Shown: in pieces, positions 16,647-59,525 of the stretch
How the letters are laid out: each line of letters opens with the position of its first letter
How positions within the stretch are numbered: position 1 is the stretch's first letter
Origin: an uncultured delta proteobacterium
Lineage (GTDB): Bacteria; Desulfobacterota; Desulfobacteria; Desulfobacterales; SG8-13
Assembly (NCBI GenBank): GCA_963848135.1
Contig: CAWKCK010000017.1
Location: 898,538-962,537 of the forward strand
Reading direction: 5' to 3'
Length of the DNA: 64,000 nt
The notes under the pieces: generated by a model
The model's database searches: none
Told to the model about the DNA's origin: nothing
The model's input: only the letters and a program-made list of their open reading frames with translations
Translations under genes and position numbers: made by a program

Positions 16647-16649
16647 TAT

Positions 16650-18972: not shown

Positions 18973-18979
18973 TGATTGC

Positions 18980-26192: not shown

Positions 26193-26202
26193 AATCAAAA
26201 AT

Positions 26203-26229: not shown

Positions 26230-26235
26230 TTAGGA

Positions 26236-26688: not shown

Positions 26689-26692
26689 TTGA

Positions 26693-27655: not shown

Positions 27656-27706
27656 TGTTTGTAACCCGAACGATAAAAAGATCTCCTCGCACTGAGCGGA
27701 ACCAGG

Positions 27707-32760: not shown

Positions 32761-32806
32761 TTAGACATTTATCCTAAACAATAAATCAGAGGAATCGGGC
32801 TAAAAC

Positions 32807-33886: not shown

Positions 33887-33889
33887 CAC

Positions 33890-35305: not shown

Positions 35306-35319
35306 GGCTAAATTTTAAG

Positions 35320-37642: not shown

Positions 37643-37712
37643 AAAGAAACGATGAGGCGAAAACGTCAATTGATACGACAACCTGCAAACATATTATCTG
37701 GACCGGTAAAGC

Positions 37713-39095: not shown

Positions 39096-39160
39096 GGCGC
39101 GTGCAATGAAAAGGGGATCTTCGATCCATTTCGCTGAAACGAAGGAACTATTATTCGGGA

Positions 39161-40108
39161 ATGTCGATAGGCGACGGGGGCAAGCGATGGCTTGCCGAAA
39201 ATTTTGACCAACAGGTCAGGTTCGATGAGCCGATGTCCCGCCACACTTATTTCCGGGTCGGCGGACCAGCAGAGGCATTTGTAAGCCCACGCGACCTGGA
39301 GGGTCTTCAGCGGTTGGTTCGCTGGTGCACGGCTGAAGGTCACCCGACGCTGGTCATCGGCGGTGGATCGAATCTGCTAGTAAAGGATCGCGGCATCTCC
39401 GGGGTCGTTATCAGCCCTCGACGGTGCCTGAAGGGCATCAAAGTGGCGATGGCCGGCGAGGCGCCTGCGGTGGTGGCCCAGGCAGGAGTTAACCTGCAAT
39501 CCCTTTGCCGGTATTGCGCAAAGCAAGGACTGAGCGGAATGAACTTTGCGGTCGGTATTCCCGGAACGGTGGGCGGAGCGGTTGTGATGAACGCCGGAAC
39601 GACAATGGGAAGCATGGGGGATGTCATCGACTCCATTGAATGCCTGCTCTGGGATGGACGAATGGTAAGGTACGAGCGTAGCGTGCTCGAATTCTCCTAT
39701 AGAAGCCTATCCTGGAAAGAAAACCGGTCGGCCGGCTTTACTGAAACGCCGATCGTCATCAACGGCTGTTTTCGATTGAAAACGAGCGCTGCACCAATGC
39801 TGAAAAAAGAGGCAGAGACCTTGTTGAGATTGCGGACTGAAAAACAACCCGTCGATCAGCCCAGCGCCGGATGCTTTTTTAGAAATCCGGCCGACGGACC
39901 GGCCGCCGGATTTCTAATCGAGCGGTGCGATTTGAAGGGGTGTCGTATCGGTAACGCCCAGGTATCAACCAAGCATGCCAATTATATCGTCAATCTTGGC
40001 GGTGCCTCCGCCCGTGACATTTTATCCTTGGTGGAACTCGTCAGGGAAAAAGTGGCTGACCGATTCAAGGTCGATCTCGAACCCGAGGTGAAAATCGTTG
40101 GGCACTAA
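39161..40108 (+). CDS. murB: UDP-N-acetylenolpyruvoylglucosamine reductase MurB
   Basis: 315 aa with an FAD-binding domain (FRVGGPAE, GGGSNLL) and a C-terminal SAGCFFRNP motif. Confidence 0.9.
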   Translation: MSIGDGGKRWLAENFDQQVRFDEPMSRHTYFRVGGPAEAFVSPRDLEGLQRLVRWCTAEGHPTLVIGGGSNLLVKDRGISGVVISPRRCLKGIKVAMAGEAPAVVAQAGVNLQSLCRYCAKQGLSGMNFAVGIPGTVGGAVVMNAGTTMGSMGDVIDSIECLLWDGRMVRYERSVLEFSYRSLSWKENRSAGFTETPIVINGCFRLKTSAAPMLKKEAETLLRLRTEKQPVDQPSAGCFFRNPADGPAAGFLIERCDLKGCRIGNAQVSTKHANYIVNLGGASARDILSLVELVREKVADRFKVDLEPEVKIVGH

Positions 40109-41030
40109 ACGCATCAGGAAAAACCGTTTCCGGCGCAAACGAACAAAAGTAATGGGTCGTTTCCTGGGCGGTACCGTGAAAATTTTTGTCATCGGGGTCG
40201 GTATCTCCCTACTCAGTCTCTTTTTTATACTCTGTCACGATGTCATCACTCAATGGGAGGCTTTCAGGGTGGAAAGGATAACGCTGACAGGAAACCAGCG
40301 TTTGAATCGCGAGCAGGTTTGCGAACAGTCCCTCATACAATCGGGTGCCAACATCTTCGCCGTCAACTTGACCGCTGCCCGTAAAAGACTTCTGGCCCAC
40401 CCTTGGATCGCGGAGGCTTACATCCAGCGGGAAATACCGGATGGAATTCATTTCCACATCCGTGAACATCGGGCGATGGCCGTGATTGATCTTGGACGCA
40501 AATTTCTGCTCGATGATGCCGGGACGCTTTTCAAAGAGTTGGAGTCGAAAGATACTGAAAACCTACCGGTCGTCCATGGATTGAGTTACGCCGATGTGGA
40601 AATAGACCACGCGGCCTCCCGGCAACGGAAATCGACGGTACCACTCGACGGCGAGAAGAGGGATTTAAGACGTTACACCTCGCCATATGGCGCCCTTGTC
40701 ACCCTTTTGCAGATAGGCGACGAGATAGGCAGCGTTATTCCCAATACTCTGGTCGGCCGAATCGATGTGGACAGGGAAACCGGTATCACCGTCCATATGA
40801 CAGAGGGGCCCAGAATCGTCAGGCTGGGATTCGGCGAGTATGCGGCAAAATATGCCGTTCTGCAGCGCCTGCTGGCTTATCTGGCGCAGGGTCCCGTTGG
40901 AGACTGGCACAGGTTCGAGGCGGTCGATTTGAACAACCTGAACCGGATCGTCGTCCGACCGCTTTATGATTCGGACACCGATACGGGGTCGCAAAAAGAT
41001 ACCGGCGGCAAAGCGAGTAAGGTCTCATAG
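40098..41030 (+). CDS. ftsQ: Cell division protein FtsQ (POTRA domain)
   Basis: 310 aa with a basic N-terminus, one TM helix and a POTRA-like FRVERITLTGNQRL. It lies between murB and ftsA. Confidence 0.75.
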   Translation: MGTKRIRKNRFRRKRTKVMGRFLGGTVKIFVIGVGISLLSLFFILCHDVITQWEAFRVERITLTGNQRLNREQVCEQSLIQSGANIFAVNLTAARKRLLAHPWIAEAYIQREIPDGIHFHIREHRAMAVIDLGRKFLLDDAGTLFKELESKDTENLPVVHGLSYADVEIDHAASRQRKSTVPLDGEKRDLRRYTSPYGALVTLLQIGDEIGSVIPNTLVGRIDVDRETGITVHMTEGPRIVRLGFGEYAAKYAVLQRLLAYLAQGPVGDWHRFEAVDLNNLNRIVVRPLYDSDTDTGSQKDTGGKASKVS

Positions 41031-41143
41031 CCCCGTATCCGGTGGTTTTAATGGCTTGAACACCGAGAGATGATGTCGCGTCAGCCGGGCAATAGCGCGC
41101 GTTCACCGGCAGAGCGCAGTGACTTATTAAGGAGGTTGGATAA

Positions 41144-42370
41144 ATGCACGACCAGGGCAATATTATCGTCGGTCTGGATATCGGAACGACCAAAATCTGT
41201 GCCATCGTAGGTGAGGCCTCTGGTGGAAAATTGAACATCATCGGCATCGGCACGCATCCCTCCATTGGCCTGCGGAAAGGCGTGGTCGTAAACATCGAGT
41301 CGACCGTGGAGTCGATAAAAAAGGCGGTGGAAGAAGCCGAACTGATGGCCGGTTGTGAAATTTCGTCGGTGTACGCCGGCATTGCCGGTGGTCACATTAC
41401 AGGGTTCAACAGTCGCGGGATCGTAGCCATTAAAGGGCCGGAAATAACCGAACAGGATGTGGAGCGGGTTATTGATGCCGCCAGGGCCGTGGCGATTCCC
41501 ATGGACCGGGAAGTAATTCACGTCCTGCCCCAGGAATACATGGTCGACGATGAAGCGGGAATCCAGAACCCCGTCGGTATGGCCGGGGTGCGGCTGGAAG
41601 CCAAGATTCATATCGTAACCGGTGCCGTAACGTCTGCCCACAATATCGTTAAGTGTGCCAACCGCTCCGGTTTGGATGTCTGCGATATCGTTTTGGAATC
41701 GCTTGCCTCCGGAGAAGCCGTCTTGACCGAAGAAGAAAAGGATCTCGGTACGGCGCTCATCGACATGGGTGGCGGTACCACGGATCTGGCGGTATTTTCG
41801 GGCAAAAATATCAAACATACGTTCGTTCTGGCCCTCGGCGGCAACAATCTGTCCAATGATATTGCCATCGGATTGCGGGCCCCGCATGCGGAAGCGGAAA
41901 AGATCAAAACAAAATACGGCACTTGCCTCTCCAGTAATATCGGCAGCGACGATACCATCGAAGTTCCGGGAATGGGTGGACGGGAACCGCGAAAATTGCA
42001 GCGGCAGATTCTGGCCGAAATACTGGAGCCCCGTACGGAGGAGATTTTCACCCTGATCAATCGGGAAATTTACCGCGCCGGTCAGGAAAATTCGATCCCG
42101 TCCGGGGTGGTCCTCACCGGCGGCTCTTCCCTGTTGGACGGTGCGACCGAAATCGCCGAATCGATTTTCGGTCTTCCAACCCGGCTCGGTAAACCACGGG
42201 GGATCGGTGGCCTGGTCGATGTCGTCAATAACCCGATGTACGCCACCGGGGTGGGACTGGTCATCTATGGTGCCAGACGGCAAAACGCCAAGAAGTTCAG
42301 GATACGCGACAAGAATATTTTCAATCGCATTATGACGCGTATGAAACGCTGGTTTCATGAGGTGGTGTAG
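41144..42370 (+). CDS. ftsA: Cell division protein FtsA
   Basis: 408 aa, actin-like ATPase, with motifs VGLDIGTTKI, DMGGGTTD and VLTGGSSLL. The C-terminus is an amphipathic helix. Confidence 0.95.
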   Translation: MHDQGNIIVGLDIGTTKICAIVGEASGGKLNIIGIGTHPSIGLRKGVVVNIESTVESIKKAVEEAELMAGCEISSVYAGIAGGHITGFNSRGIVAIKGPEITEQDVERVIDAARAVAIPMDREVIHVLPQEYMVDDEAGIQNPVGMAGVRLEAKIHIVTGAVTSAHNIVKCANRSGLDVCDIVLESLASGEAVLTEEEKDLGTALIDMGGGTTDLAVFSGKNIKHTFVLALGGNNLSNDIAIGLRAPHAEAEKIKTKYGTCLSSNIGSDDTIEVPGMGGREPRKLQRQILAEILEPRTEEIFTLINREIYRAGQENSIPSGVVLTGGSSLLDGATEIAESIFGLPTRLGKPRGIGGLVDVVNNPMYATGVGLVIYGARRQNAKKFRIRDKNIFNRIMTRMKRWFHEVV

Positions 42371-42563
42371 GCGCCGGAAGGCGCCGCATTGAAATGGCCC
42401 GATATCAGGTAATCAGAGACGAGCAAAAATTGCTAATCCAACGATGCAGAACCCAGGTTCCAAAATCTTGCAAGGGCGGCGGTGCACCGGGATGCACTTT
42501 CGACAGCGATGATTCTGTCCCTGCGGCCTGCATCATCAAACATTCACATTAGGGGGGTGAAAC

Positions 42564-43748
42564 ATGTTTACTTACGTTGACAATGAAAAATCGGCAAAAA
42601 TTAAAGTCATCGGTGTCGGTGGAGCCGGCGGAAACGCCATAAACAACATGATCGCTTCGAAACTCCAGGGCGTCAAGTTTATCGCAGCCAATACTGACGC
42701 GCAGGCTCTCGAGACCTCCAACGCTCCGGTCAAAATCCAGCTCGGGGAGCAGCTCACCGAAGGGCTGGGCGCCGGCGCCAATCCCGAAGTCGGTCGACAG
42801 GCCGCACTTGAGAGCGAAGAGGTCATCCGGGAAGCTTTGAAGGACAGCCACATGGTATTCATCACCGCTGGCCTCGGCGGCGGTACGGGAACCGGAGCTG
42901 CACCGGTCATCGCAGATATCTGCAAAGATATTTGTGCGCTGACAGTCGCAGTGGTGAGCAAGCCCTTTTCCTTTGAGGGACGCAAACGTTCCCGCCAGGC
43001 GGATGAAGGCCTCCAATCCCTGCAGCAGGTTGCCGATACGGTGATTACGATTCCCAACGACCGATTGAGGGGTATTGCGTCAAAAAGCGCCACCATGATC
43101 GAAATGTTCCAAAGAGCCGACGAGGTCCTGCTCCACTCGGTTAAGGGAATTACGGACCTGATCATGATGCCGGGGTTAGTGAACCTGGATTTTGCCGATG
43201 TTAAAACGACGATGTCAAAAGCGGGCATGGCCATTATGGGCATCGGTAGCGCTACCGGCGAAAACCGTGCGGTACTGGCCGCTGAAAGAGCCATCTCACA
43301 TCCGCTGCTCGAGGATATTCCCATCAACGGCGCCAGAGGTGTGCTCATGAACATTACCAGCTCCAGCGATCTGACGATGGAAGAGATGACCGAGGCTTCG
43401 GACCGGATATACAATGAGGTCGGAGAGGATGCAGAGATCATTTGGGGGACGGTTGTCGACGACAGTCTGGGAGAGGAAATCCGCGTCACCCTGATCGCCA
43501 CCGGTATCGGCGGAAGTGCCGAACCTTTGGTCAAAGAAAATCGCCCCGATGTCAAACTTCGCGGTAAGGTTCGCGACCTTACCCCCGCAGACCTCCAGTA
43601 TGCCGAGGATCTCGAGGTCCCCACGTTCATTCGCCAGAAGGAGGCCGTGGGGGAATCCAACCGGGCGACCTATCGTGGATACCGCGGAATTGTTTTGGAC
43701 AATTCCGACCTGGAAGTGCCGACGTTTTTGAGACGCAAGGCCGACTGA
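42564..43748 (+). CDS. ftsZ: Cell division GTPase FtsZ
   Basis: 394 aa with the tubulin signature GGGTGTGAAP and the NTDAQAL motif. The C-terminal DLEVPTF[IL]R motif is present twice. Confidence 0.97.
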   Translation: MFTYVDNEKSAKIKVIGVGGAGGNAINNMIASKLQGVKFIAANTDAQALETSNAPVKIQLGEQLTEGLGAGANPEVGRQAALESEEVIREALKDSHMVFITAGLGGGTGTGAAPVIADICKDICALTVAVVSKPFSFEGRKRSRQADEGLQSLQQVADTVITIPNDRLRGIASKSATMIEMFQRADEVLLHSVKGITDLIMMPGLVNLDFADVKTTMSKAGMAIMGIGSATGENRAVLAAERAISHPLLEDIPINGARGVLMNITSSSDLTMEEMTEASDRIYNEVGEDAEIIWGTVVDDSLGEEIRVTLIATGIGGSAEPLVKENRPDVKLRGKVRDLTPADLQYAEDLEVPTFIRQKEAVGESNRATYRGYRGIVLDNSDLEVPTFLRRKAD

Positions 43749-43990
43749 GTCTTTTGCACGCTTCCGAGATCGGACGTTCAGCGGGTCACCGCAACGATCT
43801 CAAAGGGCGTAGCGATGTCGCCGGATGCTGGAGCGGTAGCGCTAAATATTATATGGGACCGCCATCGCCCCCCCCGGTTCAACCACCGGCGGCGACTGTC
43901 ACCCGGTTGCAAATCAGCTTCAACATAGCTATCGTAAGCAAAAGCCGTTTGTTAATAAGGCTCACGTTTCAATGAAGCTGGTGACAGCCC

Positions 43991-45739
43991 ATGCGAAAAG
44001 ACCGTAAAACGACCAGGGGAGACCTGATCGGCGCAGAAATAGGTACAATACGAAAAAGCGGTCCCGGCCGCCTCAATATTGTGCTGGTCTACCCCAACAG
44101 TTACCACGTCGGCATGTCAAACCTCGGATTTCAGGTGGTCTACCGCCTGTTGAACCGGTTTGACGGTGTGGTCTGCGAAAGGGCCTTTTTACCGAACGAC
44201 GAAACGCAACCGGGGAACGACAGCAAAAGTCTCGAATCCGGAAAACCGCTGAAGGATTTTGATGTTATCGCGTTTTCGATCTCATTTGAAAACGACTATC
44301 CGAATGTGCTCAGAACGTTGGAAACAGCAGGCCTCCCCCTGCAATCACAATATCGCCATACCAAACACCCCCTGGTAATTGCAGGGGGAGTGGCCTGTTT
44401 CCTGAATCCCGAACCCCTATCGTCATTTATCGACTGCTTTCTGCTCGGTGAAGCCGAAGCCATGTTGGAAAATTTCTGCGCACGACTTGTGGCAGACGGC
44501 TTAACCGGAGGGGGGGATAAATGGTCGATCCTTTCGGCGTGCGCCCGCCGGATCCAGGGCGTTTATGTCCCGCGGTTCTATCGACCCGTCTATACGGACG
44601 GCGGGCTCTTGAAAGCCATAGAACCGCTGGCCGATGTCCCCGAAAAAGTACGCCGGACGTATATCGCCGATCTATCGACGGTACCGGCCTGCAGTACCGT
44701 GGTCACCCCTCATACCGCCTTCGACCGCACGTTTTTAATCGAAGTCGGTCGGGGCTGCCCCCACGGCTGCCGATTCTGCACCGCCGGTTTTATCTACCGC
44801 CCGCCCCGCTTTCGCCCCCTGTCACTTCTTCAGGCTTGCATACAGGAAGGCGCAGCCGTTACCGACCGAATCGGATTGGCCGGAGCAGCCGTCTCGGATC
44901 TCCCGGAAATCCGAGAACTTTGCAGCCAGGCCCAGCAGGGCAATATCCGCATGTCCTTCAGCTCCCTGAGAGCTGACGCCCTCGATGAAGACTTGCTGGC
45001 AGTCCTGGATCACAGCAACGTCAAAACCGCCACGATCGCACCGGATGCCGGCTCCGAAAGAATGCGGCGCGTCATCAACAAGGGTATTGACGAACAGGCG
45101 ATCCTGAGGGCCGCATCCCTCCTCGTGGCCAAAGGCATACCGAATCTCAAGCTCTATTTCATGGTTGGCCTGCCGACTGAAACAGGAGATGATGTCGAGG
45201 CCATCGTCACACTCTGTAAAAGGATTAAGCATGTATTTCTGCGGGAAAGCCGAAATAAAGGCCGCATCGGAGACATCACCGTCAGCCTGAATTCATTCGT
45301 GCCGAAACCGGTTACGCCCTTCCAGTGGACGGCCATGGACGACATCAGTACGCTCAAACAAAAGATTCGGCAGGTGAAAAACGGCCTTAAAAAAGTGCCC
45401 AACATTCGGGTGCATGCCGATATCCCGCGCTGGGCGTATATCCAGGCGCTTTTGTCCCGGGGGGATCGCCGGGTCGGCGACCACCTTCTTCTGGCCCACC
45501 GGAACGGACAGAATTGGCCCCAAACACTGAAAGAATCTCCTATCAATGCCGATTTCTACGTCCTTCGTGAGCGTGCGCTCTCTGAGAAATTGCCATGGGA
45601 CTTCATCGATCACGGTATCGAAAAATCCTACCTGGCCCGGGAATACCGCAAAGCCCAAAAAGGCCAATCATCACCACCCTGTCCGATGACTGACTGCACC
45701 CTCTGCGGGGTCTGCCATGATGAGGGCGCAGACAGTTGA
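43991..45739 (+). CDS. Radical SAM protein with a B12-binding-like N-terminal domain (uncharacterised rSAM family)
   Basis: 582 aa. The motif GRGCPHGCRFCTAG gives the CxxxCxxC cluster. The N-terminus reads LNIVLVYPNSYHVGMSNLG. The C-terminus has a cysteine cluster, CPMTDCTLCGVC. Confidence 0.8.
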   Translation: MRKDRKTTRGDLIGAEIGTIRKSGPGRLNIVLVYPNSYHVGMSNLGFQVVYRLLNRFDGVVCERAFLPNDETQPGNDSKSLESGKPLKDFDVIAFSISFENDYPNVLRTLETAGLPLQSQYRHTKHPLVIAGGVACFLNPEPLSSFIDCFLLGEAEAMLENFCARLVADGLTGGGDKWSILSACARRIQGVYVPRFYRPVYTDGGLLKAIEPLADVPEKVRRTYIADLSTVPACSTVVTPHTAFDRTFLIEVGRGCPHGCRFCTAGFIYRPPRFRPLSLLQACIQEGAAVTDRIGLAGAAVSDLPEIRELCSQAQQGNIRMSFSSLRADALDEDLLAVLDHSNVKTATIAPDAGSERMRRVINKGIDEQAILRAASLLVAKGIPNLKLYFMVGLPTETGDDVEAIVTLCKRIKHVFLRESRNKGRIGDITVSLNSFVPKPVTPFQWTAMDDISTLKQKIRQVKNGLKKVPNIRVHADIPRWAYIQALLSRGDRRVGDHLLLAHRNGQNWPQTLKESPINADFYVLRERALSEKLPWDFIDHGIEKSYLAREYRKAQKGQSSPPCPMTDCTLCGVCHDEGADS

Positions 45740-45911: not shown

Positions 45912-46352
45912 ATGAGTTCTAAAAAAGAACTAAAGCTTGCCTACGGAATGGCAATCGCGTTATTCGTTGTGGGTGTCGTAAGCTATGCATATACAGCCTT
46001 TTCAGCCAAACCACCCGAACTGCCGGTGCGCATTATGTATCATAGCGCAGCAGGCAAAGTTCTCTTCGATCATAAAACACATACAGCCGATACGGGATAC
46101 GGTTTTTCCTGTTATGACTGCCATCATCATCCGGAAGACGATGAGTCCGCCTTGCGTGCCTGCGGCGACTGTCACAACCTGCCGGTAGAAACGGGACAAT
46201 TTCCGGAATCATGCATCGAATGCCACGACCAGGACGAAATCGAAGGCTCGGAAGTCTCTAAAAGGGGCGATGCCTTTCATCTTCAGTGCATCAACTGCCA
46301 CAAAGACGCCGGTGCCGGCCCCGAAGACTGTAATTCCTGTCATGTGTTGTAA
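45912..46352 (+). CDS. Membrane-anchored multihaem cytochrome c (class III/c3-like, five CxxCH)
   Basis: The ATG at 45912 has a GAAAGGA SD. A TM anchor (LAYGMAIALFVVGVVSYAYTAF) is followed by CYDCH, CGDCH, CIECH, CINCH and CNSCH plus extra His residues for bis-His ligation. The ORF-track start at 45834 is probably spurious. Confidence 0.85.
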   Translation: MSSKKELKLAYGMAIALFVVGVVSYAYTAFSAKPPELPVRIMYHSAAGKVLFDHKTHTADTGYGFSCYDCHHHPEDDESALRACGDCHNLPVETGQFPESCIECHDQDEIEGSEVSKRGDAFHLQCINCHKDAGAGPEDCNSCHVL

Positions 46353-46428: not shown

Positions 46429-47712
46429 ATGATACGAAAATCGTTTTTCGGCCTTGCTAAACCCCGCTTCGAATACGCAGCGCTCACCGGTGCAATGCCG
46501 GAAATCCTGTCCATCCCCCCACCGAAATCGGTAAGATTCTTAATCAATGGTTCCTTTGAGGCCAGAGGTAAGGAAGCCGTCAAACCGGGAGATGACGTCA
46601 TGCGCGGCCAAAAGCTGATTCACTCTGAGACTGGCGGCGCCTACGCGATGGCAACCGTCAGCGGAACCGTGACGGCAGTCATGCCGCATTCGGGTGATTT
46701 TGGAAAAGCCTGCACGGCGGTCACTATCGATGTGTCAGCGGTGGATGAAAGCGACGAACCCAGCGAAAATAATCAAAACCTGCCGACACTGGACACCGCC
46801 CTCGACACTTTGGCGTGTTTGCCAGGGGCCCCTCCGTTTGAAAAGTTCAGGAACCCGGAAACCCCGATTCACACGGTTGTCATTTATGGTGGTGATAGCG
46901 ATCTTCTGATCAACACCAACCAGATCGTCATTAAAACAAAGTTGGACGCGGTCAAAGCCGGAATCGCAGCCCTCAAGCATATCACCGGCGTGGAAAAGGT
47001 CATCGTGGCCATCCCCGGTGAAATCATTCAGGGGTACGGTCATATCGGTGCCGAAGTGAAAAACGTCGCTCTGGAATATCCGGCGGCATTTCCCCAGATG
47101 ATCATGAAAAATGCCCTCGGGCAGGTCGTACCGGCCGGTCAGACACCGGAAGATCTCGGTGTGACTTTCATGACGGCTGAAGCCGTGGCATCCCTCGGGG
47201 AGGCCGTTGAGATCGGACGTCATCCGGTCAGAAAACTTATTACGGTCGCCAACAAGGCCGGTGGCCTGAAGTTGGTATCGGCCGTCGTGGGAACCCCCAT
47301 CGGAGAAATTTTACATGCCGTCGGCATCACCATGGAAGAAAGTGACCGCCTTATCATCGGCGGGCCCATGACCGGAACGGCCATCTATTCCGAAGATTTC
47401 CCGGTCGAACCCGACACGAGTGCCATCATCGTGCAGGACAAGTCAGACGTATCCCACGTTTCCGACTATCCATGCATAAACTGTGGAGACTGCATCCGCA
47501 TATGTCCGGTCGATATTCCGATCAATATGCTGGTGCGTTTTCTCGAAGCCGGGCACTACGAGGATGCGGCGGATATGTATGATCTTTATTCTTGCATCGA
47601 ATGTGGTCTGTGCAGTTTTGTCTGTGTGGCAAAGATACCCATATTTCAGTACATCCGGTTGGCTAAATTCGAAATTAGCCGGGTAAATGCAGCGGAGGCG
47701 GTGAATGAATAG
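46429..47712 (+). CDS. rnfC: RnfC-like subunit with intact 2x[4Fe-4S] motifs but degenerate NuoF-type FMN/NADH motifs
   Basis: 427 aa, colinear with RnfC. The C-terminal CINCGDCIRICP and CIECGLCSFVC motifs are present. The glycine loop reads LPGAPPFEKF and the ECEPY site reads GDSDLL. Confidence 0.85.
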   Translation: MIRKSFFGLAKPRFEYAALTGAMPEILSIPPPKSVRFLINGSFEARGKEAVKPGDDVMRGQKLIHSETGGAYAMATVSGTVTAVMPHSGDFGKACTAVTIDVSAVDESDEPSENNQNLPTLDTALDTLACLPGAPPFEKFRNPETPIHTVVIYGGDSDLLINTNQIVIKTKLDAVKAGIAALKHITGVEKVIVAIPGEIIQGYGHIGAEVKNVALEYPAAFPQMIMKNALGQVVPAGQTPEDLGVTFMTAEAVASLGEAVEIGRHPVRKLITVANKAGGLKLVSAVVGTPIGEILHAVGITMEESDRLIIGGPMTGTAIYSEDFPVEPDTSAIIVQDKSDVSHVSDYPCINCGDCIRICPVDIPINMLVRFLEAGHYEDAADMYDLYSCIECGLCSFVCVAKIPIFQYIRLAKFEISRVNAAEAVNE

Positions 47713-48664
47713 TCGCAAAAAGTTCATTGTTTCACACGCGCCCTTCTGGCACTATGGCAGCAATATCAGCGAGCGCAGTTATCACACCATGCTCGCAGCG
47801 CTGCCGGCCGTTTTATTGGGCATGATTCAGTTCGGACTCCCGGCACTGGCCGTCGTGGCCCTTTCCGTATCGTCCGCTATTCTATGGGAATGGGCCTTTG
47901 CGGCCATCACGAAACGCCCCAACACGATTGGCGATGGCAACGCCGCGCTTATCGGCCTGTTGCTCGCCATGCTCATACCGGCCACGACACCCTGGTGGGC
48001 AGTGCTGACAGGCACTTTCATTGCCATTGTGATCTGTAAGCAAATTTTCGGTGGTATCGGCGGGAACTCCTTCAGCCCGGTGGTTCTGGCGATTGCCATT
48101 TTGGCCCTTTCCTGGAAGGATATTTTCGATTTCGATTCGGCGCTCGTCAATTACGACCTGGGGTTCACCATGTATCATCCTCTGGTGGCCCTGAAAGCCT
48201 TCGGATCGAATGTCGTCACCGATTTCTCGATTGGAGATCTGTTGCTAGGACGTCAGGTCGGGGGCATCGGCTCCACCTTTGGGTTGGGATTGATTCTCGG
48301 CGGTATCTACCTGATTCTCAGGGGATTTATTCGCTGGGAAATCTCACTCTCATTTCTCGTGGGTATCCTGGTATCGGCAACGCTTTTTCACATGGCTGAT
48401 CCAGCCAGGTTTGCGGGTCCGCTCTTTCATCTGCTGACCGGTTACACGCTGATCGGCGCCTTTTTTCTGGCCACCGAAGACTCGTCGTCACCAGTCAATT
48501 TTATTCCCATGCTGGTTTACGGGGCGGCCGGCGGGATAGTAACGGTCATGATCAGAAACATCGGCGCTTATGCCGAAGGCGTCATCTATGCCATTCTGGT
48601 GATAAACATGGTCAATCCGTTGCTCGATAAGATCCGGCCCAAAGCATTAGGAAAGGTAGTCTAA
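47705..48664 (+). CDS. rnfD: Rnf complex membrane subunit RnfD
   Basis: 319 aa, polytopic, NqrB/RnfD-like (for example FFLATEDSSSP and MVNPLLDK). It overlaps the rnfC stop by 8 nt. Confidence 0.9.
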   Translation: MNSRKKFIVSHAPFWHYGSNISERSYHTMLAALPAVLLGMIQFGLPALAVVALSVSSAILWEWAFAAITKRPNTIGDGNAALIGLLLAMLIPATTPWWAVLTGTFIAIVICKQIFGGIGGNSFSPVVLAIAILALSWKDIFDFDSALVNYDLGFTMYHPLVALKAFGSNVVTDFSIGDLLLGRQVGGIGSTFGLGLILGGIYLILRGFIRWEISLSFLVGILVSATLFHMADPARFAGPLFHLLTGYTLIGAFFLATEDSSSPVNFIPMLVYGAAGGIVTVMIRNIGAYAEGVIYAILVINMVNPLLDKIRPKALGKVV

Positions 48665-48665: not shown

Positions 48666-49259
48666 ATGCGTGAAATGATCCAAATGGTCGTGGTCCTCAC
48701 CATCCTAAGCTGCGTTTCCGGCGGTCTGCTCGCCTACATCAAAAATGGAACCAAGGAACAGATCGAATACCAGCAACTGGTATTCGTGAAAGGCCCGGCA
48801 ATCCGTGCCATTCTAGAGGGATCCGCCAACGACCCCATCACCGACCGTTTCAAGATCGAAGACGGCGATACCGAGCGCAGCTTCTTCGCTGGCGTCTTCG
48901 ACGGTAAGGCCAACACCGTGACGTTCGAAACCTCAGGCAAAGGCTTCGGTGGCGACATCGGCGTGATGGTCGGTGTCAACCTTGACGATGACAAAATCGT
49001 TGGTGTTGGCGTCACCACCCACAGCGAAACACCGGGAATCGGTGCTTTAGCCAAAACCAATGTCGCGTTCAGCAGCCAGTTCAAAGGAATGCCGCTGAAG
49101 GATACGTTTAAGGTCAAGACCGACGGGGGCCAAGTGGACGCTTTGTCAGGGGCCACCATAACCTCACGGGGAGTGAGCGCTGCATTGACTGATGCCGTCA
49201 AAATGTACGAAAGCCTCAAACCCCAAATCGCCGACAAAATGAAGTCATTTTCCAAATAA
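48666..49259 (+). CDS. rnfG: Rnf complex subunit RnfG (periplasmic FMN-binding)
   Basis: 197 aa with an N-terminal anchor and the canonical flavinylation motif DALSGATITSRG. Confidence 0.9.
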   Translation: MREMIQMVVVLTILSCVSGGLLAYIKNGTKEQIEYQQLVFVKGPAIRAILEGSANDPITDRFKIEDGDTERSFFAGVFDGKANTVTFETSGKGFGGDIGVMVGVNLDDDKIVGVGVTTHSETPGIGALAKTNVAFSSQFKGMPLKDTFKVKTDGGQVDALSGATITSRGVSAALTDAVKMYESLKPQIADKMKSFSK

Positions 49260-49275: not shown

Positions 49276-49881
49276 ATGGCGCGATCGATCGCTCAGGAGT
49301 TTACCAAAGGCCTATGGGATGAAATACCGCCGTTTCGTCTGGTTCTGGGACTCTGTCCCGTCCTTGCGGTCACCAAAACAGTCGAGAACGGCTGGGGGAT
49401 GGGCCTGGCAACGACATTCGTGTTGGTGTGCTCCAATGTCCTGGTTTCTCTGTTGCGAAAAGCTATTCCATCCAAGGTCAGAATTGCCTGTTTTATCATC
49501 ATCATCGCTACGTTCGTGACCGTGGTCGAACTGGCCATGCAGGCGTATGCCTATCCCCTCTTCTTGAAACTGGGTATCTTTATCCCCCTGATAGTCGTCA
49601 ATTGCATCGTTCTGGGGCGGGCTGAAGCCTTCGCATCGAAAAACGGTTTTGTGCGATCCACTCTAGACGGTCTCGGTATCGGTGTCGGCTTCACCCTGGC
49701 GCTTGCGGCACTGGGCGCCGTGCGGGAGCTGCTCGGAACTGGATCTCTGACATTATACGAGACACCGATACAGATTTTTGGCTCATCCTATCAACCGTTT
49801 GGCTTTATGGTCGAGGCCCCCGGCGCATTTGTCGGATTAGGACTGATGCTGTGCATTATGAACATGCTGGGGAAAAAATAG
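49276..49881 (+). CDS. rnfE: Rnf complex membrane subunit RnfE
   Basis: 201 aa, NqrD/RnfE-like (GLCPVLAVT and VNCIVLGRAEAFA). Confidence 0.9.
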   Translation: MARSIAQEFTKGLWDEIPPFRLVLGLCPVLAVTKTVENGWGMGLATTFVLVCSNVLVSLLRKAIPSKVRIACFIIIIATFVTVVELAMQAYAYPLFLKLGIFIPLIVVNCIVLGRAEAFASKNGFVRSTLDGLGIGVGFTLALAALGAVRELLGTGSLTLYETPIQIFGSSYQPFGFMVEAPGAFVGLGLMLCIMNMLGKK

Positions 49882-49890: not shown

Positions 49891-50466
49891 ATGGGTGACT
49901 ACATCGTTCTTGCCATCAGCTGTATTCTCATTAACAATATCCTGTTGGCCCAATACCTGGGAAACTGCCCGTTCCTCGGTACATCCAAAAAAATGGAAAC
50001 CGCCGTTGGTATGGCCATGGCAGTGGTTTTTGTTCTGGTAATGGCGGGGATGATCACCTGGGTGGTCAACGCTTTTGTCCTGGTTAAATTCGGCATGGAA
50101 TACATGCGCACGGTGGCATTCATTCTTGTGATCGCCTCCCTTGTGCAATTCGTCGAGATGTTCCTGAAGAAAAGCATACCCGCACTTTATGCCGGACTGG
50201 GAATATTTCTGCCCCTGATCACAACCAACTGTGCGGTTATGGGTGTCTGCCTGATCAACATCAACGAGGAGTATAACTTCCTCCAGGCTCTGGTAACCTC
50301 TTTTGCCTATGCCGTCGGCTTCGGCCTAGCCCTGATTTTATTTGCCGGCGTCCGAGAGCGCATTCTGCTTGCCAGGGTGCCGCGACCGCTTCAGGACACC
50401 TCCATTGCTCTGGTGACTGCGGGTGTTTTGTCTCTGACCTTTTTTGCTTTCAAAGGCTGGGTGTAA
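49891..50466 (+). CDS. rnfA: Rnf complex membrane subunit RnfA
   Basis: 191 aa, NqrE/RnfA-like (NNILLAQYLGNCPFLG and ITTNCAVMGV). Confidence 0.9.
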   Translation: MGDYIVLAISCILINNILLAQYLGNCPFLGTSKKMETAVGMAMAVVFVLVMAGMITWVVNAFVLVKFGMEYMRTVAFILVIASLVQFVEMFLKKSIPALYAGLGIFLPLITTNCAVMGVCLININEEYNFLQALVTSFAYAVGFGLALILFAGVRERILLARVPRPLQDTSIALVTAGVLSLTFFAFKGWV

Positions 50467-50740
50467 AAGTTAATCTGAAACGATGCCGCGTGCTGCTGAA
50501 TCGGGATCGACGACACGACGGCACGCTGCTAATGTGACGCGCTACCTGGTAAATGCAACCAACTCATCCACTGCGCAACTCATCTCCAAAGTCCATCCAA
50601 ACAGCGGACACTCGTCCGGTTTCCTTAGTATTTACGCCATCCCAACAGAGGATTTGCATTTTCAGCAGGCCTGAGTGGGAGAACCAGGGTCGGTTGCTGT
50701 ATATCGCCACCGGGCAACCGTCAATCCGAGGGAGGTAGCG

Positions 50741-50769
50741 TTGACAGGACAACGGCAACTCGATTTAAT
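50741..50769 (+). promoter_or_regulatory. Candidate internal sigma70 promoter upstream of rnfB
   Basis: TTGACA (50741-50746), a 17-nt spacer, then TTTAAT (50764-50769). It sits inside the 397-nt rnfA-rnfB spacer, about 95 nt upstream of the rnfB start. Confidence 0.3.
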
Positions 50770-50863
50770 TTGTCGATGAACGGGATTCGGCCACAGCGAG
50801 TCGAGTTGAGAAACCGAACTGCTTGATTCAAAAACCATAAATGAACCGTTACCGGAGGACAAC

Positions 50864-52957
50864 TTGATAGAAGCCGTTCTTGTAATGTTGGGGTTGGGCG
50901 CTGCCTGCGCCTCGGCGCTGACAGTCGCGTCAAAAGTTTTTTATGTTTATGAAGATCCGCGCATCGCCGAAGTCGAGGGCATGCTGGCCGGAGCGAATTG
51001 TGGTGGTTGCGGCTACCCGGGCTGTTCGGGAGCGGCCGCTGCCGTGGTCGACGGCAAGGCACCGCCCAGCGTCTGCGTTGTGGCCGACCTTGAAACCGCG
51101 ATCAACGTCGCCGGGGTGATGGGAATCGACCCTGGCTCCGTGGAGCCCCTGAAATCCCTGAACACATGCCTGGGCGGTGACCGCGCGGATGACAAGTATT
51201 ACTACTCCGGCGTCCAAAGCTGCCGCGCGCTAAGCGCCCTGTATGGCGGAAAGCGTGAATGCCGGGTGGGGTGTCTGGGGTTCGGTGACTGTATCGCTTC
51301 GTGCCGGTTTGACGCAATCGATATGGGCCCGGATGGGTATCCGGTTGTCAACGAGATGAAGTGCGTCGGCTGCGGTGCTTGTGAAAAGGCCTGCCCGAAG
51401 TCGATCCTGCAGGTCCGCACCATGTCCCAACGCCTGCTGCATTTCAATCAGGAAGACGACGCCCTGGCGCCCTGTCAGCAGACCTGCCCCGCTGAAATCG
51501 ACATACCGCGATATATCGCCTGCATCAGGGATGGCGATTATGAAGCTGCCGTTAATACCATCCGCGAGCGCAACCCGCTGCTATTGACCTGTGGACGGGT
51601 CTGTCCGCACCCCTGTGAAGACTATTGCCGACGCGGCATCGAAGAAGAACCGGTATCCATCAACCAGTTGAAACGTTTTGCCGCCGACTACGAAATGAAT
51701 TCCGGCAGCAGGCTACCGATCTCCTGCGCAGCGGATACGGACAAGAAAGTGGCGATTATTGGCGGCGGCCCCGCCGGATTGACCTGTGCCTATTTTTTAA
51801 GGCGACTCGGCCATGGCGTCACGATTATCGATATGATGCCCAAATTGGGAGGAATGGTCCGCTACGGCATTCCCGAATACAGGCTGCCAAAAGAAGTATT
51901 GCAATGGGAGATCGATGGGATCCTGAACCTGGGGGTCGAACACCGCCCCAGCGTCAAGCTTGGCGAAGACTTTACGCTGGCCGATTTAGAGGCGGAAGGT
52001 TTTGACGCCGTTTTTATGGGAATCGGCGCCTGGAAGGATTACAGTTTGAGAATCGAGGGCGAAGATATGAAGGGGTGCTACACGGGCATCGATTTTCTGA
52101 CCAAATTTGCCCTCAACCAGCAATCCGATACGAACAAAAAGGATATTCCCATCGGCCGTAAATGTGCGGTGATCGGCGGAGGGAACACCGCCATCGATTG
52201 TGTTCGCACCCTGGTGCGATTAGGGGCCGAAGAAGTCAGCATTGTCTACCGGCGGACGCGAAAGGAAATGCCTGCCAACGACGTCGAAATTGTGGCCGCT
52301 GAACACGAGGGGGTCAAATTCCATTTCCTGGCCGCACCGACCCGCGTCGTCAGTGACGACGACGGCAATGCCACGCATCTGGAATTTCTAAAAATGGAGC
52401 TCGGTGAACCAGACGCCAGTGGAAGGCGGCGCCCGGTACCGGTAGAGGGTTCCGAAACCCTGATGGAAGCCGACATGATCGTGTCCGCCATCGGCCAGGG
52501 CCCGGATGTCGGCTTCATGGAAAAGGACAACCGCCTAAAGGAAATGAATGTCACCCGCTGGAGTACCATCGATGCCAATCCGGAAATACTCCAGTCGAAC
52601 ATCCCGAATGTTTTCGCTGCCGGTGACGCCTATACCGGTGCTTCCCTTGTCGTTGAGGCCATTGGCGGGGGCCGAAGAGCGGCGCGGGCGATTCATCTCT
52701 ACCTTGCCGGTCACGAGGTCGAACCCGTCTTGAAGTCGCTGCGCAAAAAACATATTCCTGAATCTCTGTTTGGGCAGGTAGACGGTATCCGTCCGACGGT
52801 GCGCGCAGTCATGCCCGAATTACCGGTGCAGGAGCGGATAAAAACCTTTGAAGAAGCCGATTTGGTACTTGAGGAAAAAGACGCCGTAGCGGAATCACGC
52901 CGCTGCCTCTCCTGCTGCCGATTATGCTATAATCCAGACATCAAACCTGCAGCGTAA
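50864..52957 (+). CDS. rnfB: RnfB fused to a GltD/NfnB/SudA-like NAD(P)H-dependent FAD oxidoreductase module
   Basis: 697 aa, TTG start with a GGAGGA SD 4 nt upstream. Residues 1-185 form an RnfB core: membrane anchor, CGGCGYPGC cluster and two ferredoxin motifs including CVGCGACEKACP. Residues from about 195 to 697 form the GltD-like part: CQQTCPAEIDIPRY...GRVCPHPCEDYC, VAIIGGGPAGLTCAY, AVIGGGNTAIDC and VFAAGD. Confidence 0.85.
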   Translation: MIEAVLVMLGLGAACASALTVASKVFYVYEDPRIAEVEGMLAGANCGGCGYPGCSGAAAAVVDGKAPPSVCVVADLETAINVAGVMGIDPGSVEPLKSLNTCLGGDRADDKYYYSGVQSCRALSALYGGKRECRVGCLGFGDCIASCRFDAIDMGPDGYPVVNEMKCVGCGACEKACPKSILQVRTMSQRLLHFNQEDDALAPCQQTCPAEIDIPRYIACIRDGDYEAAVNTIRERNPLLLTCGRVCPHPCEDYCRRGIEEEPVSINQLKRFAADYEMNSGSRLPISCAADTDKKVAIIGGGPAGLTCAYFLRRLGHGVTIIDMMPKLGGMVRYGIPEYRLPKEVLQWEIDGILNLGVEHRPSVKLGEDFTLADLEAEGFDAVFMGIGAWKDYSLRIEGEDMKGCYTGIDFLTKFALNQQSDTNKKDIPIGRKCAVIGGGNTAIDCVRTLVRLGAEEVSIVYRRTRKEMPANDVEIVAAEHEGVKFHFLAAPTRVVSDDDGNATHLEFLKMELGEPDASGRRRPVPVEGSETLMEADMIVSAIGQGPDVGFMEKDNRLKEMNVTRWSTIDANPEILQSNIPNVFAAGDAYTGASLVVEAIGGGRRAARAIHLYLAGHEVEPVLKSLRKKHIPESLFGQVDGIRPTVRAVMPELPVQERIKTFEEADLVLEEKDAVAESRRCLSCCRLCYNPDIKPAA

Positions 52958-52995
52958 ATCTCCCCAACGCCACCAAACAAAATATAGCTGCCCAG

Positions 52996-53023
52996 AAGGG
53001 CACCGTAGCAAAGCGGTGCCCTT
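52996..53023. terminator. Bidirectional terminator between convergent rnfB and rluD
   Basis: AAGGGCACCG-8 nt loop-CGGTGCCCTT, a 10-bp stem with a T-rich tail on the plus strand. Confidence 0.6.
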
Positions 53024-53028
53024 TCTAT

Positions 53029-54932: not shown

Positions 54933-56990
54933 TTAACCCATTTTTATCAGGATGGGCACCAGCAACAGCGCCACGACGTTCAGGATCTTGATCATCGGGT
55001 TGATGGCCGGTCCGGCGGTATCTTTGTAAGGATCGCCGACGGTGTCACCGGTAACGGCGGCTTTATGCGCATCACTGCCCTTACCACCCAGGTTGCCATC
55101 TTCGATGTACTTCTTGGCGTTATCCCAAGCCGCGCCACCCGTTGTCATGGAAATGGCCAAGAACAGACCGGTGACGATACTGCCGATCAGCAGACCGCCC
55201 AGGGCGATTTTGCCCAGGAGCAGGCCGACGATGATCGGTACGGCAACCGGCAGCAGGGCCGGAATGACCATTTCCTTGAGGGCAAACTTGGTCACGATGT
55301 CAACGCAGGCCGCGTAATCCGGTTTGGCGGTCCCTTCCATGATTCCCGGGATCTCGCGGAACTGCCGCCGGACCTCATCGACGACGGCACCACCGGCTTT
55401 GCCGACGGCCTTCATACAAATGGAACCAAAGAGGTAAGGCAGCATACCGCCGATGAAGAGACCGATGATGACGTTCACGTTGCTGAGATCAAAGCTCAAT
55501 TGCTCGCCACCACCATGGAGAGCGAACTCCTGGGTATACGCGGCAAACAGCACCAGAGCGGCCAGTGCGGCCGAGCCGATGGCATAACCTTTGGTGACGG
55601 CCTTGGTGGTGTTACCAACCGCATCCAGTGGATCGGTGACGGCACGCACACTATCATCCATCCCGGCCATTTCGGCAATACCACCGGCGTTGTCGGTGAT
55701 CGGACCGTAAGCATCGATGGCAATGACCATACCGGTCATGGAGAGCATCGACATGGCCGCCATGGCAATACCGTAAAGTCCCGCGAAATAGTAAGCCGTA
55801 CCGATGGCTAAACAGATGGCCAGCGCCGGAAGAGCGGTGGCTTCCATACTGACAGCCAGACCGGCGATGATGTTGGTGCCATGGCCGGTGGTCGAAGCTT
55901 CAGCCACGAATTTGACCGGTTTGCGAATGCCGGTGTAGTACTCGGTGATCATGACGATAATGACGGTCAGGGCCAGCCCGACCAGGGTCGAGTAATAAAT
56001 CGCCATCGGGGTGATCACCCTGACACCGGGAACCTCGAGTGTCGGCAGCATTTGCCGGCAGGCGATAAAGAAGGCAATCGCCGCTAAGATGGCCGCTCCG
56101 AACATGCCTTTGTACAACGCGCCCATGATGTATTCATTGGCACCCAGGCGAACAAACCCGACCGCGATGATCGATGCAACGATGGAAATTGCGCCCAGCA
56201 CCAGTGGAAATTCAGTGGCCATGAGATGATCGGGAAAGAGCAGGTTTCCCAACAACATGGCGGCCACCGCTGTAACGGCATATGTCTCGAAGAGGTCCGC
56301 TGCCATCCCGGCACAGTCGCCGACATTGTCGCCGACGTTATCCGCGATAACCGCCGGGTTGCGGGGATCGTCTTCGGGAATACCGGCTTCCACTTTTCCG
56401 ACCAGGTCAGCGCCGACATCGGCGCCCTTGGTGAAAATTCCACCGCCAAGACGGGCAAAGATAGAAATCAGGCTGCCGCCGAATCCAAGGGCCACCAGGG
56501 CGATAACCGCATCCCGAACGGGTGTACCGGTGTTAACAAGGATGGTATAAAAACCGGCCACGGCGGTCAGAGCCAGTCCGGCCACGATCATACCGGTCAC
56601 AGCGCCACCTCTGAAGGCCATGGACAGGGCCTTGGCTAGCCCGCCTTTGGCCGCTTCGGCCGTGCGCACATTGGCGATAACGGAAACCCGCATGCCGATG
56701 TAACCGGCCATAAACGAGGCCGCCGCACCAACGAGAAAACCGACGGCGGTTTTGATGCCAAGCGTAAAGGCGATCAAAACGAACAAAACAACGGCCGCAA
56801 GGCTCATGCTTTTCAACTGGCGATTGAGATAAGCGATCGCTCCGGTCTTAATTGCTTCGGCGATGTCAGTCATTTTTTCATCGCCTGCCGGCGAATTTTT
56901 TACCATGCTCGCGGTAATGATCGAGAATAGCACACCCGCGATGCCGACTAATGTACAAATTAACGGTAGGTAGTTCATCCTTCCCTCCAT
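54933..56990 (-). CDS. hppA: Membrane-integral ion-translocating pyrophosphatase
   Basis: 685 aa, about 16 TM helices, with motifs [21 protein letters not shown] and [14 protein letters not shown]. The [10 protein letters not shown] motif carries the Lys variant associated with K+-independent enzymes. Confidence 0.95.
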
Positions 56991-59450: not shown

Positions 59451-59525
59451 TGGCTGGGGCGGGAGGATTCGAACCTCCGAATGCAGGAACCAAAGTCCTG
59501 TGTCTTACCGCTTGACGACGCCCCA
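59451..59525 (-). tRNA. tRNA-Gln (anticodon UUG), CCA encoded
   Basis: The reverse complement folds by hand as a cloverleaf: acceptor TGGGGCG/CGCCCCA, anticodon stem CAGGA/TCCTG with loop CTTTGGT, T arm GGAGG-TTCGAAT-CCTCC, and 3' GCCA. Confidence 0.9.

Follow-up and report, generated by a model that had tools for sequence, protein, structure and literature searches.

We analyzed a stretch of 64,000 nucleotides (nt) of DNA from an uncultured delta proteobacterium (contig CAWKCK010000017.1 of assembly GCA_963848135.1), referred to here as the window, which contains an operon for an Rnf complex. The operon encodes, in order, a cytochrome c, RnfC, RnfD, RnfG, RnfE, RnfA and a fusion of RnfB with a GltD-type flavoprotein (RnfB::GltD), and our subject is its second gene, rnfC. 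The product keeps the RnfC fold and both of its [4Fe-4S] clusters, and the canonical site for flavin mononucleotide (FMN) and NADH is replaced. We conclude that this open reading frame (ORF) encodes the RnfC of a complex of the Rnf2 type, also called the Desulfobacula toluolica Tol2-type, in an uncultured member of the Desulfobacterales, and that it has lost the FMN/NADH residues because it belongs to the Rnf2 variant of sulfate-reducing bacteria.

A first-pass annotation made from the letters alone had claimed that three cofactor motifs of RnfC are replaced in this protein. The translation reads exactly so, and HMMER alignments to solved RnfC structures place the three segments opposite the canonical motifs. 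When searched with phmmer against all PDB chains, the ORF matched the RnfC chains of A. vinelandii (8ahx_C, 1.8e-34), C. tetanomorphum (7zc6_C) and A. woodii (9eri_C), to which it is ~24-25% identical. At the glycine-rich loop, 'LPGA--PPFEKF' was aligned opposite LGGAIFPAAVKL (A. vinelandii), LGGATFPTHVKL (A. woodii) and MGGATFPTHVKL (C. tetanomorphum), and the CLPGAPPFEKF of the query thus stands where the three chains read LGGAIFP, LGGATFP or MGGATFP. This loop, G-x-G-G-A-x-F-P, is 100% conserved in 15 canonical RnfC sequences. Further along, VVIYGGDSDLLI of the query fell opposite VLVNGSECEPYL and VVLNGAECEPYL of the solved chains, YGGDSDLL opposite NGSECEPY, NGAECEPY or NAAECEPY, and VIVAIPGE opposite VVIAIEDN and IGVEDNK. 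The third motif, Y-P-A-A-F-P in the query against a canonical Y-P-x-G-x-E, was aligned with YPAAF opposite YPMGS and YPQGA. The earlier positions of these segments were right apart from a trivial slip, a start at 46819 that is one codon late (46816). In regular-expression searches and alignments, neither the query nor 79 of 80 relatives showed a GGAGFP-type loop at another place, and no NADH-active RnfC with the same substitutions was found.

Curated models and structure prediction are in line with an RnfC that has a replaced cofactor site. It exceeds the cut-off of the Pfam RnfC_N family (32.9, cut-off 25.6) but scores below those of Pfam Complex1_51K, the Nuo51 FMN-binding family (29.3 bits, cut-off 31.2), and of the NCBIfam rnfC model TIGR01945 (199.3 bits, cut-off 245.95), and an SLBB domain was not matched in Pfam. 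An AlphaFold2 model computed from the clade alignment reached a predicted local distance difference test (pLDDT) score of 88.4 and a predicted template modeling (TM) score of 0.88, with pLDDT above 90 across aa (amino acids) 130-170. In Foldseek comparisons, its TM score was 0.77-0.80 to the RnfC chains 8ahx_C, 9eri_C and 7zc6_C, 0.66-0.70 to NqrA and ~0.4 to NuoF-type proteins. We count the protein as homologous to canonical RnfC because of the phmmer matches, these TM scores and the RnfC_N cut-off that it passes.

The resemblance to NqrA raises the alternative that RnfC is purely structural in this complex, an NqrA equivalent and an intermediate on the way to total cofactor loss. Such a course would parallel a model for the origin of NqrA in which the NAD and FMN sites were lost first and the cysteines later (PMC4014512), and the query does give weak matches to NqrA models and to the NQRA_2nd domain. 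We nevertheless consider a purely structural role highly improbable. The eight cluster cysteines do not vary among sequences from 92% down to ~28% identity, which is unexpected for a relic over so deep a divergence, the AlphaFold2 model is closer to RnfC than to NqrA, and the nqrA models all fall far below their cut-offs (38-78 bits against 321-505). Those scores and the retained cysteines also led us to reject an identification of the protein as NqrA itself. The operon holds no gene for NqrF, and the neighbors score as Rnf subunits.

To define the change by residue, we aligned 49 sequences of the variant clade with the 15 canonical RnfC proteins, comprising 11 database representatives, the three PDB chains and one canonical paralogue from a related genome. 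Seventy-eight columns are at least 85% conserved in canonical RnfC, of which the variant clade keeps 37 and loses 41. The 37 include GGPMxG, the third motif's YP and every one of the eight Fe-S cysteines. Losses are concentrated at aa 126-140 (the glycine loop, also shortened by one residue), 153-164 (ECEPY...D), 196 (the E of IGIEDNK), 220-226, 249/252 (an N..T pair), 265-275, 315 and 328. The N..T pair recalls the 'NNVET' of NuoF, which we take to be a flavin contact. The three motif losses of the first-pass annotation are thus confirmed, but the loss reaches further than those motifs, though it is still localized.

These columns also bear on whether RnfC could bind FMN or NAD(P)H through a noncanonical pocket, in which case the complex would be an ordinary ferredoxin:NAD+ oxidoreductase and the RnfB module a second nucleotide site, for example for NADPH. 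The fold is kept, the model is confident (pLDDT above 90) around aa 130-160, the old motifs still have their G133, P135, Y217 and P218, and some relatives still score weakly on Complex1_51K. However, each of the five segments that match FMN or NADH contacts of NuoF-type proteins has changed (the Gly loop, ECEP, YPxGxE, N..T at 249/252 and E196), a residue of the loop is deleted and the acidic E-C-E-P has given way to D-x-D-L-L. With RnfC also scoring below the curated cut-offs, and with a separate canonical RnfC present in some of the same genomes, we regard this explanation as very unlikely.

The replacement is not peculiar to this genome. More than 2,000 homologues of the RnfC were found, and the best 120 are 51-92% identical to it and belong to the Desulfobacterales wherever they are named. 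An exhaustive search of representatives of 50%-identity clusters returned 150 matches down to ~27% identity, and the canonical motifs occur in just 11 of the 111 that are near full length. Those 11 form an exclusive clade in a neighbor-joining tree, which is a rough tree of a biased sample. Motif-less sequences carry the labels Candidatus Poribacteria, Planctomycetota, Spirochaetota and Acidobacteriota, and they are also present in the cultured Desulfosarcina cetonica and Desulfoluna spongiiphila. Overall, the replacement extends to relatives at ~28% identity in several phyla. We additionally scanned one genome per species, called ORFs in the 80 loci obtained (RnfC 47-87% identical) and compared them with the proteins of the window; all three motifs are absent from the RnfC of 79 of these loci.

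The residues that took the place of the motifs are themselves conserved. P132, G133, D158, Y217, P218 and P222 are invariant or nearly so among clade sequences from 92% down to 34% identity, and the clade consensus at the second replaced site is IYGGDxDLLxxTNQ. Because 79 of 80 loci share the replacement and the substituting residues are conserved, it is a property of the clade and neither chance nor decay. The flavin and nucleotide pocket thus appears to have been rebuilt and then held constant by selection, and we infer from the sequences that RnfC of the Rnf2 type carries no flavin.

We also weighed whether the motifs were lost through decay of a nonfunctional paralogue, or whether general divergence or an alignment artefact could account for the pattern. 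The low overall identity to the solved chains would suit any of these. Against decay, the ORF is intact and its 3' end overlaps the start of rnfD as in translational coupling, its homologues are numerous, and their replacement residues are conserved. Rnf2 subunits have also been detected by proteomics in D. multivorans (PMC5109826), and in six strains of the Desulfobacteraceae, whose core genome includes Rnf2, proteomics showed the complex to be abundant and constitutively formed (PMC11887813). Against an artefact, three independent alignments, from HMMER, MAFFT and Foldseek, agree. Decay is effectively refuted by the conservation and expression data, and we reject this whole family of explanations with near certainty.

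The earlier claim of a targeted loss of the FMN/NADH motifs, as opposed to general divergence, is therefore borne out by the kept fold, the invariant cysteines and the replacement of the motifs throughout the clade. It is also supported by one genome in which a canonical RnfC adjoins the variant operon. In this genome (L065), an rnfC/rnfD pair of canonical Rnf1 type (1545-4006, minus strand) lies divergently and directly beside the Rnf2 operon (4533-11176, plus strand), and the pair carries GMGGAGFP and NGAECEP in RnfC and SMATPL in RnfD. What the first-pass annotation missed was the selection on the substitutes, the published status of Rnf2 and a coordinated remodeling of the whole operon that involves the cytochrome c, the RnfB::GltD fusion and a threonine of RnfD.

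Table 1. Features of the rnf2 operon in the window
Feature	Position (nt)	Strand	Description
Pentahaem cytochrome c	45912..46352	+	146 aa from ATG 45912; listed as ORF from GTG 45834; first operon gene
rnfC, Rnf2-type RnfC	46429..47712	+	427 aa; RnfC fold and two [4Fe-4S] clusters kept; canonical FMN/NADH site replaced
CLPGAPPFEKF (aa 130-140)	46816..46848	+	Replaces G-x-G-G-A-x-F-P loop; one-residue deletion
YGGDSDLL (aa 153-160)	46885..46908	+	Replaces N-[GA]-x-E-C-E-P-Y
YPAAF (aa 217-221)	47077..47091	+	Replaces Y-P-x-G-x-E
First [4Fe-4S] motif, CINCGDCIRIC (aa 349-359)	47473..47505	+	Retained; cysteines invariant in clade and canonical alignments
Second [4Fe-4S] motif, CIECGLCSFVC (aa 389-399)	47593..47625	+	Retained; invariant in clade
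rnfD	47705..48664	+	319 aa; start overlaps rnfC end by 8 nt; Pfam NQR2_RnfD_RnfE 1e-84
RnfD GFTMYHPL (aa 153-160)	48161..48184	+	His158 at covalent-FMN threonine position (T of 'TTATPL')
rnfG	48666..49259	+	197 aa; Pfam FMN_bind
rnfE	49276..49881	+	Pfam Rnf-Nqr 5e-66
rnfA	49891..50466	+	Pfam Rnf-Nqr 1e-52
RnfB::GltD fusion	50864..52957	+	697 aa; TTG start, GGAGG 7 nt upstream; last operon gene
Terminator-like hairpin	52995..53024	+	12-base-pair stem, then T-run; 38 nt past fusion stop codon; probably the operon end

The fusion at the end of the operon joins two recognizable proteins. Its N-terminal 190 residues are an RnfB, with a transmembrane helix, a PF04060 Fe-S domain (CGGCGYPGC) and one 2x[4Fe-4S] ferredoxin fold, and its C-terminal 500 residues are a flavoprotein module of the GltD/NfnB type (Fer4_20, Pyr_redox_2) that ends in an extra cysteine motif, CLSCCRLC. 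Pfam matches are to FeS, Fer4, Fer4_20 and Pyr_redox_2; among NCBIfam models, PRK12771 ('NAD(P)-binding protein') scores 508 bits, gltA (NADPH-dependent glutamate synthase) 410 and the rnfB-type models 146-164. For FAD the module has the motif GGGPAG (aa 300-305) and for NAD(P)H the motif GGGNTAID...YRR (aa 438-464), and these are conserved in 36-40 of 40 fusion homologues. We take GGGNTAID followed by YRR to be the pattern typical of NADPH binding in the family of the glutamate synthase small subunit. Because the fusion carries both motifs, the pyridine-nucleotide site of the complex would sit on RnfB and not on RnfC. An RnfB::GltD fusion was identified in 45 loci overall, where it follows rnfA in 37 cases and precedes the cytochrome gene in eight, and it is present in 32 of the 39 loci in which both flanks are visible.

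RnfD has changed as well. In canonical complexes, RnfD binds FMN covalently through a threonine within TTATPL, Thr153 in C. tetanomorphum and Thr156 in A. woodii (PMC9588780; PMC11889175). The RnfD of the window is a clear member of its family (NCBIfam score 213, above the 207 cut-off), and in HMMER alignments to 7zc6_D and 9eri_D its GFTMYHPLVALK is aligned with GVTTATPLAILK, so that His158 takes the place of the threonine. Across the 80 loci this position is mostly Tyr (...VYPL, ...AYPL), in contrast to the SMATPL of the canonical RnfD in L065. The 'ATPL' flavinylation motif is also absent in all seven distant loci that we inspected; six have no threonine at the position, and the RnfD of the seventh, L086, has a Thr there in the noncanonical context 'AETF'. 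RnfG, on the other hand, keeps its covalent-FMN motif, SGAT (aa 161-164, nt 49146-49157), and scores 252.1 against the NCBIfam model RnfG_DVU2794 (NF045876), above the 205 cut-off. Published descriptions call the Rnf2 subunits other than RnfB and RnfC 'very similar' (PMC11887813 supplement), and the Rnf2 literature that we searched does not mention the RnfD threonine. Both the loss of this threonine and the spread of the complex beyond sulfate reducers may be new.

The operon begins with the gene for a cytochrome with five CxxCH motifs and a hydrophobic N-terminus, from which we predict a membrane-anchored or secreted protein. It matches Pfam Cytochrom_CIII (7e-10) and resembles TmcA, although its score does not reach the NCBIfam cut-off. 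Every related locus with a visible upstream region (76 of 76) has a multihaem cytochrome c gene immediately before rnfC, and these cytochromes carry three to seven CxxCH motifs, five being commonest. At the other end of the operon, rnfA and the fusion are separated by ~400 nt of noncoding sequence (50467-50863). Rfam identified no RNA element there at the gathering threshold, and the gap holds a weak 5-base-pair hairpin (50605-50618) alone. It is probably not a conserved element, since its length varies from ~10 to ~400 nt in related loci. A gene for a 582-aa radical SAM protein (43991-45739, plus strand; Radical_SAM_N2 and Radical_SAM) immediately precedes the cytochrome gene, and in 26 of the 80 related loci a homologue is found at this place.

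The architecture of the operon recurs in relatives at ~30% identity. A contig of Candidatus Poribacteria (L082) encodes a cytochrome c3, RnfC, D, G, E and A, a 705-aa RnfB fusion and ApbE. Two further distant contigs encode a cytochrome c, RnfCDGEA and a fusion of 670-696 aa (~30% identity), and at another distant locus a 12-haem cytochrome is present and the contig ends before rnfB. Distant loci with an RnfB fusion include L082, L086 and L087. At L087, the RnfB::GltD gene (12015-13927, plus strand) is followed by a second multihaem cytochrome and the small subunit of a [NiFe]-hydrogenase, an arrangement that hints at a link of this type of Rnf to periplasmic hydrogen metabolism. At another locus, L083, a divergent gene (5938-7638, minus strand) for a Pyr_redox_2 and rhodanese protein resembling coenzyme A-disulfide reductase precedes RnfC and possibly marks another Rnf partner variant. 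Taken together, the loss of the RnfC motifs, the RnfB fusion and the adjacent cytochrome are strongly associated, but they are not absolutely linked.

In canonical Rnf, electrons follow a U-shaped path, passing from ferredoxin through the RnfB clusters and the RnfA/E center to the FMN of RnfG and returning through the RnfD FMN and riboflavin to the RnfC clusters, the RnfC FMN and NAD+ (PMC9588780; PMC11889175). Here, the second arm of the U is without both of its protein-encoded flavin sites, those of RnfD and RnfC, a haem protein is encoded beside the periplasmic turning point, and the arm of entry has gained, by fusion, a flavoprotein that would oxidize the nucleotide. As a whole, we think the evidence is probably best explained by an Rnf2-type RnfC that has no FMN/NADH site, in a complex whose nucleotide site has moved to RnfB and whose electrons exit to cytochrome c. 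The move of the pyridine-nucleotide site from the RnfC side to the RnfB side would parallel the relationship of NqrF to NqrA in Na+-NQR, an NADH:quinone oxidoreductase that translocates Na+. NAD(P)H, and possibly ferredoxin, would deliver electrons to RnfB::GltD, from which they would cross the membrane through the RnfA/E center and the FMN of RnfG to the periplasmic pentahaem cytochrome c. The cytochrome could in turn supply Qrc and menaquinone and thereby Qmo/Dsr and sulfate reduction, and ion translocation would be coupled as in Rnf and Nqr. The cytoplasmic return branch, from RnfD-FMN through the RnfC clusters and RnfC-FMN to NAD+, would no longer be the main exit, and RnfC would be an Fe-S-only subunit, a scaffold and/or a side relay, that probably does not oxidize NADH. 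As the simplest reading we infer that electrons from NAD(P)H and/or ferredoxin cross the membrane in one direction only, to cytochrome c, a path whose logic would resemble that of Na+-NQR and of the Rnf of M. acetivorans.

Several observations weigh against this one-way path. Seven of the 39 fully visible loci have no adjacent fusion (two have a short RnfB alone, and five have none in their flanks). Among the distant loci, L086 has the fusion and ApbE but no cytochrome, and L083 combines a motif-less RnfC with a short RnfB and no cytochrome, which shows that the traits are not strictly linked. RnfC may still do redox work, and the return branch may be alive, because the cysteines are invariant and the pocket residues conserved; RnfD could possibly hold a flavin noncovalently. 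Finally, electron transfer from NAD(P)H to a c3-type cytochrome may offer little driving force.

The main rival builds on some of these points. RnfC could be an Fe-S relay that is still on the path, with electrons flowing from RnfG through RnfD, by way of a noncovalent flavin or riboflavin, to the RnfC clusters and on to a new cytoplasmic partner docked in the vacated NAD cleft, such as ferredoxin, a DsrC-type protein or the FAD domain of the fusion's GltD part; the cytochrome would then be an extra branch. The invariance of the eight cysteines agrees with such a relay, and the conserved replacement residues in the former pocket suggest a selected surface. Moreover, canonical RnfB and RnfC lie side by side and RnfB forms part of the NAD cleft (PMC9588780), and the 500-aa module fused to RnfB could therefore reach RnfC. 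This scheme suffers, however, from the loss of the covalent FMN site of RnfD throughout the clade, which removes one of the carriers between RnfG and RnfC, and the operon has no conserved partner gene besides those for the cytochrome and the radical SAM protein. We judge it to be unlikely, if worth keeping in view, and prefer the one-way path to cytochrome c.

More tentatively, and as a proposal that could well prove wrong, Rnf2 may be an independently evolved NQR-like pump that carries electrons from NAD(P)H through the RnfB-fused GltD to a periplasmic multihaem cytochrome c. It would then not be a ferredoxin:NAD+ oxidoreductase, would have discarded the flavins of RnfD and RnfC and would extend beyond sulfate reducers. 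If this is true, its coupling differs from the mechanism derived from structures of Rnf and Nqr, where the flavins of RnfD/NqrB have a central part. Rnf2 would also provide a second, independent example of a rewired Rnf core beside the origin of Na+-NQR, and the complex would occur well outside the sulfate reducers, in Candidatus Poribacteria, with related motif-less RnfC proteins in Planctomycetota, Spirochaetota and Acidobacteriota. The Desulfobacteraceae, in whose core genome Rnf2 lies (PMC11887813), do much of the carbon oxidation in marine sediments. Where metabolic reconstructions label Rnf2 genes 'ferredoxin:NAD+ oxidoreductase', the assigned reaction is probably wrong. For biochemistry and cryo-electron microscopy, our predictions are an RnfC that has no FMN/NADH pocket, an RnfD that has no flavinylation site, an NADPH-type site on the RnfB fusion and a cytochrome c that is always adjacent.

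Outside the operon, the window contains a cluster for the Pel exopolysaccharide on the minus strand (13723-25845), with PelG, a PelF-like glycosyltransferase, PelD, PelB and a PelA-like GH114 protein. A run of genes on the plus strand (~26200-43750) ends, directly upstream of the radical SAM gene and the rnf2 operon, in ftsA (41144-42370) and ftsZ (42564-43748), and on the strength of these two genes, which are the ones we checked, it looks like a division and cell-wall (dcw) cluster. Near the rnf2 operon, on the minus strand (54933-56990), is a gene for a membrane H+/Na+-translocating pyrophosphatase (H_PPase, 877 bits), which fits the energy metabolism of a sulfate reducer. A tRNA gene (59454-59525, minus strand) is the sole Rfam match at the gathering threshold in the window.

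Compared with known systems, the RnfC of the window has the same fold as the canonical proteins 9eri_C, 7zc6_C and 8ahx_C, including the N-terminal barrel-sandwich domain and the two C-terminal [4Fe-4S] clusters, and its gene has the same position in the rnfCDGEA operon. It differs from them in its replaced pocket motifs, in missing the cut-offs of TIGR01945 and Complex1_51K and in having the nucleotide module on its partner, RnfB. Na+-NQR shows the same logic as proposed for Rnf2, with an RnfC homologue, NqrA, that does not oxidize NADH and a flavoprotein, NqrF, that does. However, NqrA has also lost its Fe-S clusters, whereas those of the window's RnfC are invariant, and NqrF, which is FNR-like and carries FAD and [2Fe-2S], has no relationship to the GltD-like module. 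NQR, moreover, reduces quinone at NqrB and keeps a covalent FMN there, whereas in Rnf2 the likely acceptor is a cytochrome c and RnfD has no such threonine.

The Rnf of M. acetivorans also has a cytochrome gene (MmcA) that precedes rnfC and is cotranscribed with it, does not use NAD and is proposed to pass electrons from periplasmic RnfG to the cytochrome (PMC4023990; bioRxiv 10.1101/2022.07.20.500911). It differs in being archaeal, in its short RnfB and ferredoxin donor and in the reported conservation of its RnfC cofactor sites. We rejected a Methanosarcina-type Rnf for the window because the rnfC, rnfD, rnfG and rnfB_Methano models score 137, 162, 85 and 150 bits against cut-offs of 650, 400, 230 and 445, rnfC_Methano matching over the C-terminal half only; the cytochrome-first gene order is the only feature in common. 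With the Desulfovibrio-type Rnf (DhcA-RnfCDGEABF) the window shares an RnfG of the DVU2794 type, and the Desulfovibrionaceae have been assigned the Rnf1 type, except Dv. salexigens (PMC11887813). Our cluster and homologue searches yielded no sequence from Desulfovibrio. Genetic work has been done on the rnf genes of Desulfovibrio vulgaris (DVU2791-2798) and D. alaskensis (Dde_0580-0587), but efforts to detect Fd:NAD+ activity in vesicles were unsuccessful (PMC4841214). In the two-subunit 'Nqr/Rnf-like' complexes (PMC11334425), the RnfD-like subunit lacks the flavinylation threonine and the RnfG/NqrC-like subunit keeps its own, as here, and one-way transfer from NAD(P)H to extracytosolic acceptors has been proposed, which gives the path inferred for Rnf2 a precedent. 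Their NAD-binding domain is fused to the RnfD-like protein, whereas the window encodes six Rnf subunits and has its module on RnfB.

The closest match is Rnf2 itself. The same genome can hold both types, as do D. multivorans and D. autotrophicum, with an Rnf1 of the A. woodii type and an Rnf2; according to the D. multivorans genome paper, the RnfB of Rnf2 has ~700 aa and NAD+-binding sites, and the rnf2 cluster encodes a 15-kDa cytochrome (PMC5109826). The loss of the RnfC domain has been described as 'challeng[ing] a function in NAD+ reduction', and a route from ferredoxin, and perhaps NADH, through cytochrome c3, Qrc and menaquinone to QmoABC has been proposed (PMC11887813 and its supplement). 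The literature that we searched contained no enzymology of Rnf2, and the variant goes unmentioned in a review of Rnf/Nqr pumps from 2025. To this record we add a residue-level definition of the RnfC change and its conservation, the loss of the RnfD threonine, the conserved adjacency of the cytochrome and the presence of the operon outside sulfate reducers, which together make an ecologically important complex directly testable. In the portions of the original description relayed by later work (Wohlbrand et al. 2013, cited in PMC5109826; PMC11887813 supplement), the Tol2-type RnfC lacks the Complex1_51K/FMN and soluble-ligand-binding domains, as here, and a small cytochrome c3-type gene belongs to a cluster ordered cyt-rnfCDGEA-rnfB, as in the window. 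The loss of the RnfC motifs is thus a published defining property of a known Rnf subtype, to which the window adds one more member. With its fused RnfB, domain-poor RnfC, cytochrome c3-type gene and full rnfC, D, G, E, A operon, and with Desulfobacterales genomes as its nearest relatives, the window shows no essential difference from the Tol2 type.

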